Below, one piece after another: positions 9,862 to 12,992 of a DNA stretch of 27,876 nucleotides (position 1 is the stretch's first letter; every line of letters begins with the position of its first letter). Both the position numbers and the translations under genes were made by a program. The notes beneath the pieces were generated by a model. That model was not told the origin of the DNA, searched no databases, and saw only the letters and a list, made by a program, of their open reading frames with translations. The stretch comes from Planctomycetales bacterium (GTDB lineage Bacteria; Planctomycetota; Phycisphaerae; SM23-33), in contig DAOVFI010000001.1 in NCBI GenBank assembly GCA_030673005.1, positions 1 through 27,876 on the forward strand, read 5' to 3'.

Positions 9862-10554
9862 CTAACTACCCGCCCGCAGCGCTTCGGCGGCCTGTTGAGC
9901 CACCTCTTCCAACGGCGAGCCGCCGTCGAGAGTGATTATCTTCCGCCCATCGGCGGTATAATAGTCGATCACCGGCTCTGTCTGTTTGCGATAGGCGTCC
10001 AGTCTCTGCCGGACCACTTCTTCGGTATCGTCTGCCCGCTGGGCAAGTTCGCTCCCGCAGGCGTCGCAGACGCCTTCTTTCGCCGGCGGTATGTTTTTTA
10101 CGTGATAGACCGCGCCGCATTTCGGGCACGATCGCCTGCCCGTTATACGATCCACCAGCAGCGATTCGTCCGCTGCGATGATCAACACCGCTCCGAGCGG
10201 AAGGCCCATCTTTTCCAGCTGCTCGTCCAGCGCCCGCGCCTGGGCGACCGTCCTGGGAAATCCGTCCAGAAGCAGCCCTTTCTCGGTATCCTGTTTCGCT
10301 ATAGCGCCGGCCATGATATCCACGACGATCTCGTCGGGCACCAGTTCGCCGGCGTCCATGTATTTTTTCAGTTTCTCGCCCAGTTCGCTGCCGCCGGTGC
10401 GTTCGGCGCGGAGGATATCGCCGCTGGACAGATGAATCATGCCGAATTTCTCGACCAGGCGTTTTGCCTGTGTTCCCTTTCCTGCGCCCGGCGGACCCAT
10501 TAGAACCACTCTTTTGATTGCGGATTGCGGATTGTGGATTGCGGATTTCATCAT
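9862..10554 (-). CDS. adk: Adenylate kinase (four-Cys Zn-lid type) with a repeat-derived N-terminal insert
   Basis: GPPGAGKGTQA P-loop, HLSSGDILR, LLDGFPRT, lid CPKC...CDAC. Start is ATG 10554 or 10551. Confidence 0.96.
   Translation of the reverse strand: MMKSAIHNPQSAIKRVVLMGPPGAGKGTQAKRLVEKFGMIHLSSGDILRAERTGGSELGEKLKKYMDAGELVPDEIVVDIMAGAIAKQDTEKGLLLDGFPRTVAQARALDEQLEKMGLPLGAVLIIAADESLLVDRITGRRSCPKCGAVYHVKNIPPAKEGVCDACGSELAQRADDTEEVVRQRLDAYRKQTEPVIDYYTADGRKIITLDGGSPLEEVAQQAAEALRAGS
10516..10548. repeat. Heptamer tandem repeat (GATTGCG)n / (CGCAATC)n inside the 5' end of adk
   Basis: gattgcg gattgcg gattgtg gattgcg gattt. Confidence 0.85.
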
Positions 10555-10623: not shown

Positions 10624-12396
10624 TTATCCTCGTGCTCCCTTTATCCGCCCGCCGCCGCTGAGGAAGCCGCCGTAATTCCGCATGATAAGTTCGGCCTCGA
10701 TCCTCTGAACCACGTCCAGCGCCACCGAGACCATGATCAGCAGTCCCGTCCCGCCGAGGTAGGCGGCAATGTTAAAGGGGATTCCCATATTGGCCGCCAC
10801 TACCTGCGGAATGACGGCGATAAGCGCAAGAAACGCCGCTCCGCAGTAGGTAATACGCTCCATTACCCGTTCGAGATAATCGGCGGTGCGTTTTCCGGGC
10901 CTCAGTCCCGGAATAAACGAGCCGTTGTCGCGCAACTGGTCGGACATATCCTTGGGGCGGAACTGCACCGTCGTCCAGAAATATGCGAAGAAGAAAATCA
11001 TTCCCACATAGACCAGTTGATAAACCAGGTCGTTCATGTTGAACGCCTTGCCCAGGAAGGCGGCGAACCAGTTGTTCGGCCAGGCGCCGGCGATCCAGTT
11101 GGCCGGGGCATTGAAGAACATCATCAGCGAAGAGGCGAAGATGATCGGCATGACTCCGCCGTGATTAACACGCAGGGGCAGGTACTGCCTCTGCCCGCCG
11201 TACACCCGCCGACCCCGGGTGTGCTTTGCCTGCTGGACGGGTATTCGCCGCTGGGCCTGGGTGATGAGAATGGAACCGGCCACAACGAACACGAACGCGG
11301 CGATCAGGAAAATTATCTTGATCATCCCGATGTCGTCGCCGCCTGCGCCGGTAACCTTCAGCGACGCCCGCGAAATAAGTTCACGGATCGCCCACGGCAT
11401 CCGGGCGACAATGCCGGCCATGATTATCAGACTGATGCCGTTACCGACGCCGTATTCGTCTATCTGCTCGCCCAGCCACATAAGGAACATTGTTCCCGCC
11501 GTCAGGCCGAAGATCGCCATCAGAAAAACGCCTATAGAATCGGCGTACTGCGGGTACAGGTTCGTGTACTTCGGATTCATCACGAACTTGTATATCCCTA
11601 TCGCCTGTACTATGCACAAAACCACGGTCGCGTAGCGGGTGTATTCCTGTATCTTCTTGTAACCGGCCTGTCCTTCCTTCTGGAGTTTCTCCAGCGCCGG
11701 GACGACGGTAACGAGTAACTGGAAGATAATCGAAGCGGAGATATAGGGCATTATGCCCAGTCCGAACAGGGTGCACTTCTGGAGGTTGCCGCCGGTGAAC
11801 ATGGCGAAATATTCCATCGCCTGCCCCAGCGGACCGCCCGACTGTCTCTGCATGAAGCCGCTGAGGGCCTCCTGGTTCAGCCCGGGCAGGGGGATGTGGA
11901 AACCGATCCGGTAAATGCACAGCAGCGCCAGCGTAAAGGCGACCTTCTTGAGCAGGTCGGGCACCGAGAAGATGTTTTCCAGGACGCGCCTGATGGAGGT
12001 CCTTGCCGCGACCAGGAAGCCAAACACCGCCACGACCGCTACGGCCAGGACAAGATTGACAATCGGTTCACCTATTCCGGCGGCCCCGAAGGTTCCAGCC
12101 TTCAGCGATTCATAAAGCCCTACCGCGCCGGTCGCCAGGAAATAGTACACGATCATGCCGGCCAGAACGCCCAGGATGACCCGGAAGCCGTTGAAAGGAT
12201 TGTCCTGCCTGAAGAAAGCGTAGTAATACGCCGCCAGTGTCGCCAGCGAGCCGAGGATCATACCCACAGGCAGGATAAGTCCACGCAGGTCGCCGGCAGC
12301 AGCCGATAACATGGGAACGGCCCAGACTACTACCAGTATCGCCGCAACGACCACCAACGCGAGACCGAAGATCAATCTGATTGCTCTGAAAACCAT
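10624..12396 (-). CDS. secY: Preprotein translocase SecY with a ~133-aa N-terminal membrane extension
   Basis: LGIMPYISASIIFQLL, WLGEQIDEYGVGNGISLII, YLPLRVN, FIPGLRPG and GGTGLLIMVSVALD motifs. The canonical start region (IFSVPDLLKKVAFTL) lies near residue 140 of a continuous 590-aa ORF. Confidence 0.95.
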   Translation of the reverse strand: MVFRAIRLIFGLALVVVAAILVVVWAVPMLSAAAGDLRGLILPVGMILGSLATLAAYYYAFFRQDNPFNGFRVILGVLAGMIVYYFLATGAVGLYESLKAGTFGAAGIGEPIVNLVLAVAVVAVFGFLVAARTSIRRVLENIFSVPDLLKKVAFTLALLCIYRIGFHIPLPGLNQEALSGFMQRQSGGPLGQAMEYFAMFTGGNLQKCTLFGLGIMPYISASIIFQLLVTVVPALEKLQKEGQAGYKKIQEYTRYATVVLCIVQAIGIYKFVMNPKYTNLYPQYADSIGVFLMAIFGLTAGTMFLMWLGEQIDEYGVGNGISLIIMAGIVARMPWAIRELISRASLKVTGAGGDDIGMIKIIFLIAAFVFVVAGSILITQAQRRIPVQQAKHTRGRRVYGGQRQYLPLRVNHGGVMPIIFASSLMMFFNAPANWIAGAWPNNWFAAFLGKAFNMNDLVYQLVYVGMIFFFAYFWTTVQFRPKDMSDQLRDNGSFIPGLRPGKRTADYLERVMERITYCGAAFLALIAVIPQVVAANMGIPFNIAAYLGGTGLLIMVSVALDVVQRIEAELIMRNYGGFLSGGGRIKGARG

Positions 12397-12470: not shown

Positions 12471-12538
12471 GGTGTGCCTGCCTATCGGCAGACAGGCAGG
12501 AAAAAGAACCTGCCTACCGGCAGGCAGGCCTGCACACC
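12471..12538. repeat. Pair of CCTGCCTAYCGGCAGRCAGG palindromic repeats inside a GGTGTGC/GCACACC inverted repeat
   Basis: Copies at 12477-12496 and 12509-12528; flanking 7-bp IR at 12471-12477 and 12532-12538. Confidence 0.75.
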
Positions 12539-12545
12539 CTACCTG

Positions 12546-12992
12546 CTATTTATCTTGAATTATCTCGACGCTTCCGTCAGCCTGGAGGATTTTTTGTTCA
12601 GCCGAGGCCGAAAAAGCGTGCGCAACGACAGTAATTTTCTTTTTCAGTTCGCCCCGGCCAAGGATTTTCACAGGTCCGCCGCCGGAACGGATCATCCGCC
12701 TGCCTGCAAGCGTTTCCGGGTCGGCGCGTTCGCCGTCGTCGAATACATCCAGTTCGGCGACGTTGACAATCTGGAACTGCACGCGGAAGTTGGCATTGTT
12801 GAATCCACGTTTGGGTATCCTCGCCAGGACGGGCGTCTGACCGCCTTCGTACCCGAACATTGACCTTCTTCCTGCTCGCTGACCGGCCCCTTTATGCCCT
12901 CGCCCGCTGGTTTTGCCTCTTCGACAACCCCGCCCCAGGCGTCTTGACGTCTTGTTCCGACCGGCTCTGCTTGTTATTTCATCAAGTTTCAT
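12546..12992 (-). CDS. rplO: 50S ribosomal protein L15
   Basis: GKTSGRGHKGAGQRAG, YEGGQTP, IPKRGF and VKILGRGEL motifs. Confidence 0.97.
   Translation of the reverse strand: MKLDEITSRAGRNKTSRRLGRGCRRGKTSGRGHKGAGQRAGRRSMFGYEGGQTPVLARIPKRGFNNANFRVQFQIVNVAELDVFDDGERADPETLAGRRMIRSGGGPVKILGRGELKKKITVVAHAFSASAEQKILQADGSVEIIQDK

Follow-up and report, generated by a model that had tools for sequence, protein, structure and literature searches.

The housekeeping SecY of an uncultured Phycisphaerae order carries a lineage-specific N-terminal extension of predicted membrane hairpins

SecY/Sec61 is among the most conserved of membrane proteins and, to our knowledge, its plan of ten transmembrane (TM) helices is treated as universal. 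In the structures of SecYEG and SecYE-beta, the cytoplasmic end of TM1 lies at the periphery of the N-terminal half of the channel, near SecG/Sec-beta and SecE and off the lateral gate between TM2b and TM7. The first two TMs of E. coli SecE are dispensable. Here we analyze the secY gene of a 27,876-nucleotide stretch of DNA (the window) from a Planctomycetales bacterium (assembly GCA_030673005.1, contig DAOVFI010000001.1; Table 1). When the encoded protein is set beside a bacterial SecY such as that of Thermus thermophilus SecYEG (5AWW), its residues 134–590 look like an ordinary housekeeping SecY, but they are preceded by 133 additional residues with four predicted membrane helices. SecG/Sec-beta resembles this module as a small peripheral membrane element, which the module is likewise expected to be, near the N-terminal half of SecY; it differs in its opposite topology, in being a separate polypeptide with its own gene in this genome, and in lacking homology to the module. 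The first two TMs of E. coli-type SecE also form an N-in/C-in hairpin that was added to a core subunit in some lineages only and lies peripheral to the channel. The module, however, is on SecY and has no sequence similarity to them, and the genome already has a three-TM SecE.

Table 1. Features of the secY locus (positions are those of the window)
Feature	Position	Strand	Basis
secY, complete ORF of 590 aa, stop codon within the coordinates	10624..12396	-	ORF list and profile matches
In-frame TGA bounding the secY ORF, four codons 5' of the ATG	12411-12409	-	Sequence reading
rplO (L15), 5' neighbour of secY, usual spc operon order	12546..12992	-	ORF list; order repeated in one relative
adk, 3' of secY	9862-10554		ORF list
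Hairpin 1, residues 1-66, helices 2-32 and 37-63, begins M-V-F-R	12199..12396	-	AF2; profile match to 2-TM hairpin
Hairpin 2, residues 67-136, helices 67-100 and 105-130, begins F-N-G-F-R	11989..12198	-	AF2; profile match to 2-TM hairpin; sister genus
Canonical 10-TM SecY core, residues 134-590	10627..11997	-	Profile and Foldseek matches
Short amphipathic helix, residues 134-144	11965..11997	-	AF2 and outgroup comparison
SecY TM1, residues 146-165	11902..11961	-	AF2; Foldseek to 5aww_Y

The gene is the sole SecY match in its own genome, which is 86.6% complete. TIGR00967 matched residues 150–575 with 416.3 bits (cut-off 253.6), and Pfam SecY (PF00344) matched residues 209–563 with 373 bits (cut-off 32.2). 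In Foldseek, the AF2 model showed the 10-TM clamshell fold and matched 5aww_Y, 5nco_g, and others with E values of 1e-19 to 1e-20 and TM by target of 0.83–0.86; no solved or Atlas SecY model aligned before residue 135. Residues 134–144 correspond to the canonical SecY N-terminus (M-F-K-T-L-I-N-I-F in outgroups). Both the rplO-secY-adk context and the single copy are those of a housekeeping secY. We rejected an identity as accessory SecY2, which is likewise a divergent member of the SecY family: the window protein stayed under the equivalog cut-offs of both SecY2 models (NF009082, 190.6 versus 353; TIGR02920, 175.1 versus 249.6), and it is the only SecY of the genome and lies in the ribosomal operon. 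Profile, fold, and gene context together indicate that residues 134–590 are an ordinary housekeeping SecY.

The gap between rplO and secY is unusual, 149 nt in the window versus 28 nt in one relative. It contains two tandem palindromes (12477–12530) of the form CCTGCCT...AGGCAGG, a pattern with no other occurrence in the window. On the coding (-) strand the rplO-proximal palindrome scores as an intrinsic terminator-like element, with a 10-bp stem followed by a T-rich tail. These palindromes may derive from a REP-like insertion or, as an attenuator, may separate the expression of secY from that of the ribosomal genes. In another genome of our set (G022, L051/L002), rplO and secY share one uninterrupted open frame of 901 codons, and the C-terminus of its L15 is unlike those of relatives. 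The probable cause is a frameshift or misassembly where rplO ends, not a true fusion.

The original prediction read the locus as an in-frame fusion of SecY to a four-helix N-terminal module of ~133 aa, with helices at approximately residues 8–29, 40–61, 73–93, and 112–131. The 590-aa ORF, its core starting at about residue 134, and the confident helices of the AF2 model all bear this out, and the helix positions agree with those modelled (Table 1). The full-length model, built on an alignment of 81 sequences, had a mean pLDDT of 87.5 and a pTM of 0.83, with pLDDT values of 81–96 for the extra helices. When residues 1–135 were modelled alone, the helices were unchanged (pLDDT 89.6, pTM 0.76), and extra helices 1–4 are thus predicted to form a self-contained bundle. 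The N-terminus and the stretches that follow helices 2 and 4 carry Lys and Arg residues, and the a-b loop is net acidic. This charge distribution fits an N-in extension with an even number of spans, in line with the argument that an even number of added helices would keep TM1 N-in. Only three residues link helix 4 to the 11-residue amphipathic helix that precedes TM1. F-R is found at the cytoplasmic start of every hairpin, and F71 and R72 are invariant across all 4-TM forms. On the periplasmic side, helix b usually begins with a Pro, and close to its other end is an aromatic Y-Y belt; beyond F-R, Pro, and Y-Y, we found no conserved motif in the hairpin.

How widespread is the extension? We recovered SecY from 99 species genomes of the same order, 95 of which had a match. 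A hydrophobic, homologous N-terminal extension was present in 82 of the 82 secY genes with an intact 5' end (three further genes, cut by contig ends, are outside this count). It comprised two helices in 58 genes (~515–532 aa) and four in the other 24 (~569–597 aa). A six-frame search with residues 1–133 also detected similar sequence joined to SecY in further genera of this family and order. The start motif M-x-F-R (M-A-F-R-x-F-R-L-x-x-G) was conserved and frequently stood 0–4 codons past a stop codon, which fixes the start of the extension; an independent gene call in one relative chose the identical start, 28 nt past rplO. In 20 close pairs, dN/dS was 0.15–0.78 for the extension versus 0.03–0.25 for the core, and the extension was below 1 in every pair. 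Conservation in all intact genes and these ratios agree with the view, first taken from codon usage, that the extension is real coding sequence. They indicate that it is translated and under purifying selection, 3–4 times more relaxed than that on the core. Some ATG, GTG, or TTG occurs near the old start in 65 of the 82 genes, so a short isoform is possible, and some species of the order may make one.

Outside the order, SecY starts canonically (M-F-K-T-L-I-N-I-F-R-I-P-E-L in the class) and lacks the extension, both in ~130 genomes from 19 further families of the class and in ~113 genomes from other Planctomycetota classes. Occasional long open frames 5' of outgroup SecY were rejected as extensions, being non-hydrophobic, Arg-rich read-through of GC-rich DNA. 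We then compared a hairpin profile of 70 positions (alignment A2) with 1.84 billion representative proteins and obtained 27 matches. We inspected 23 of them; the other four are 487–530 aa or 43–46 aa long. All 23 open with the hairpin, and those that are long enough continue into E-N-I-F-S-I-P-E-L, the start of SecY. The shortest stop within the hairpin, and the two weakest (P0026 and P0028) have helix a only and no continuation into SecY. Several of the 23 have frameshifted or adapter-derived tails. No plausible stand-alone hairpin protein was found among these 23 of the 27 matches. Many database 'proteins' with the hairpin (P0003, P0004, P0007, P0008, P0011, P0012, and P0023) are pieces of SecY cut short, whose tails are out of frame or resemble sequencing adapters; they are short-contig assembly artefacts and not stand-alone hairpin proteins.

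All carriers of the extension are MAGs. The named records are labelled Phycisphaerae, Phycisphaerales, Planctomycetales, Planctomycetaceae, or Planctomycetota bacterium (SM23_33, for example), whereas records from Sedimentisphaerales, Anaerohalosphaeraceae, and Pirellulales matched in the canonical SecY part only. A GTDB order named after SM23-33 exists, and it may be the order that bears the extension. The module had not been recognised at the outset, and our searches likewise returned no family or fold for it. Residues 1–133 matched no Pfam or NCBIfam family, and the hairpin gave scattered single-member Pfam matches only, no PDB sequence match, and none in the Atlas. Foldseek with residues 1–135 against PDB and AFDB returned generic four-helix matches only (GPCR fragments and the V-ATPase c subunit, E >=0.17), which we rejected as a fold identity. 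A word-based search with the extension found the window's own protein only. No donor family for the hairpin was detected in the 1.84 billion proteins, Pfam, NCBIfam, PDB sequences, or the Atlas, and a literature search found no description of N-terminal membrane extensions of SecY. Among everything searched, these comparisons place the extension in one uncultured Phycisphaerae order and nowhere else.

Profile comparisons pointed to a repeat within the extension. Using hhalign, unit 1 aligned with the 2-TM hairpin at a probability of 98.4% (P 4e-15), unit 2 aligned with it at 99.1% (P 8e-19), and the two units aligned with each other at 84% (P 7e-6). The control, hairpin against SecY core, gave 0.1% (P 0.5), and on this result we rejected the hairpin as a duplicate of SecY's own helices. 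Direct alignment of units 1 and 2 was not significant within the window protein (z 1.1), but relatives reached z values of up to 7.7. The alignments thus indicate that a ~68-aa hairpin was duplicated in tandem to give the four-helix form.

We placed the helix counts on a maximum-likelihood (ML) tree of the SecY core. The order formed one clade (SH-aLRT 99), its smaller family was all 2-TM, and the 2-TM state was basal. On this tree, 12 TM helices, not 14, are the ancestral and commonest SecY state in the lineage. The 4-TM state implied ~6 changes, at least three of them forced by well-supported branches. Its carriers were the window's clade, a 12-member clade with GTG starts, genus g44, a single species that nests within g2 (a genus otherwise 2-TM), and one other species. 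The window's sister genus (85–87% core identity) has a single hairpin, which matches only window residues 67–133, the second hairpin; it follows that this genus lost hairpin 1. The tree and the alignments indicate that the duplication had several separate origins and a single loss, that in the sister genus of the window. One 4-TM gene (L068, genome G001) shares the upstream context G-F-A-N-M with its three 2-TM congeners (L057, L059, and L073): its extra hairpin may be a recent gain whose new copy diverged very fast, or the siblings may have lost theirs. This gene and its congeners make a good pair for dating the duplication.

The genome encodes SecG and a three-TM SecE separately from secY, so the extension replaces neither. 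Replacement of SecG was also rejected at the level of the order, where SecG (TIGR00810) was found in 98 of 99 genomes; in the class it was found in 149 of 151. The own-genome SecG, on contig C716 (L132:18-611 +) outside the window, is 198 aa long. Its SecG domain (residues 5–71) is followed by a C-terminal Fn3_assoc / CHB_HEX_C_1 beta-sandwich (~92–162), both above Pfam cut-offs, and from SecG topology the Fn3_assoc domain should be periplasmic. By eye, the tail motif Y-T-L-D-G-x-x-P-T was seen in five f1 relatives (L120, L121, L123-L125) and not in one f2 genome (L122) or five outgroups (L126-L130). SecE lies on contig C170 of the same genome (G000; L133 1111..1674 (+)), with a TIGR00964 match at 1501–1629. 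By eye, two N-terminal hydrophobic helices stand ahead of its conserved C-terminal segment, and it appears to be of the three-TM type. The SecYEG total here would come to ~19 TM helices.

How might these parts fit together? We propose that a ~68-aa N-in/C-in hairpin joined SecY at the base of the order and was duplicated in tandem within the window's clade, where the pair would form the predicted four-helix bundle. Since the three-residue linker and the 11-residue surface helix lead directly into TM1, the proximal hairpin should lie no further than about two helix diameters from the cytoplasmic end of TM1. From this linker length and the known SecYEG structures, we infer that the bundle would flank the N-terminal half of the channel on its outside, close to the sites of SecG/Sec-beta and SecE, and would stay clear of the TM2b/TM7 lateral gate. 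Most likely it would be a non-catalytic accessory part of SecY itself, which would stabilise or shield the N-terminal half or serve as a docking surface, and would be kin to SecG or to the dispensable SecE TMs in kind, not in ancestry. Overall, we think it probable that the protein is the sole housekeeping SecY of this bacterium, translated from the ATG at 12396–12394, with a lineage-specific membrane domain as a built-in peripheral accessory element. More tentatively, the hairpin may be a novel translocon subunit, built into SecY, that changes the working of the channel or its binding partners, its copy number tuned by selection, within a wider remodelling of SecYEG in the order (SecY with 12–14 TMs, SecE with three TMs, and SecG with a periplasmic Fn3-associated domain).

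The extension could also be a near-neutral passenger, a hairpin fixed once by chance and tolerated since, which would bring no function, with selection only keeping it hydrophobic and so sparing SecY biogenesis. Its divergence, 3–4 times faster than that of the core, and its repeated duplication and loss (about six changes in copy number, with one loss in the sister genus) fit weak constraint. The core also lacks an interface signature: clade-specific substitutions affect five scattered positions only, with no clustering to mark an interface. The conserved motifs, too, are limited to F-R, Pro, and Y-Y, but the conserved hairpin starts, with F71 and R72 invariant, suggest a specific contact. 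Moreover, complete loss was seen in 0 of the 82 intact genes across two families, and dN/dS stayed below 1 in every pair. We therefore regard a passenger as rather unlikely, but as a serious competitor of the accessory reading.

A still less likely reading, which we doubt strongly, makes the extension an active modulator of the channel: the hairpins would extend to the lateral gate, bring about SecYEG oligomerisation, or recruit a partner (YidC, SecDF, or the domain-bearing SecG of this family), and so alter substrate insertion. With so short a tether to TM1, the proximal hairpin, at any rate, would be unlikely to get to the gate. The translocon of this family is remodelled at a second site, the SecG with its periplasmic Fn3_assoc domain, which favors the idea; however, this SecG domain is not co-distributed with the hairpin and is absent in the one f2 genome examined.

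We also considered an annotation or assembly artefact, in which SecY would really begin around residue 134 and the frame ahead of it would be open by chance, owing to a lost stop codon or a frameshift. Two features of the locus would suit this view, the unusual 149-nt gap past rplO and an ATG with no Shine-Dalgarno sequence ahead of it. However, the same extension recurs in 82 independent assemblies, its amino acids are conserved with dN/dS below 1, and a stop lies directly 5' of the conserved start. The original prediction had found no nearby ATG with an RBS at the usual start, and we saw no ATG in the region near residue 134 and no start codon of any kind at the canonical position in the window: the nearest alternative starts are two GTG codons at residues 121 and 123, within extra helix 4. 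Given the 82 intact genes and the dN/dS values, read mapping is not needed to rule out a lost stop or a misassembly, and a separate module ORF, which would have pointed to two split genes, was not found in 1.84e9 proteins. An artefact is thus very improbable. Finally, a subunit fusion, with SecG or SecE as the extension, has next to no plausibility: SecG likewise has two TMs and E. coli SecE an N-in hairpin, but the SecG (TIGR00810 / PF03840) and SecE (TIGR00964) profiles have no match in residues 1–133, in line with the reported lack of a SecE signature, both genes are present elsewhere in the genome, which refutes a fusion, and an N-in hairpin is opposite in topology to SecG, whose loop is cytosolic (PMC8082313).

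The tethered accessory subunit and the targeting module that the original prediction suggested are candidate roles. Its proposed link of the module to the general planctomycete cell plan is unsupported because the trait is confined to one uncultured order. Across Phycisphaerae, where SecY lengths were thought worth comparing, the extension was on all 82 intact genes of that order and on none from the 19 other families. An entire order would have a 12- or 14-TM SecY that arose from a duplicating hairpin with no detectable relative elsewhere. The order serves as a natural experiment on what the periphery of the channel will accept, and it is one of the few cases in which the origin of a membrane module on an essential protein can be dated. 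A module with a role would point to lineage-specific control of protein export in these uncultured Phycisphaerae; a module with none would be a clean example of the neutral elaboration of a core machine.
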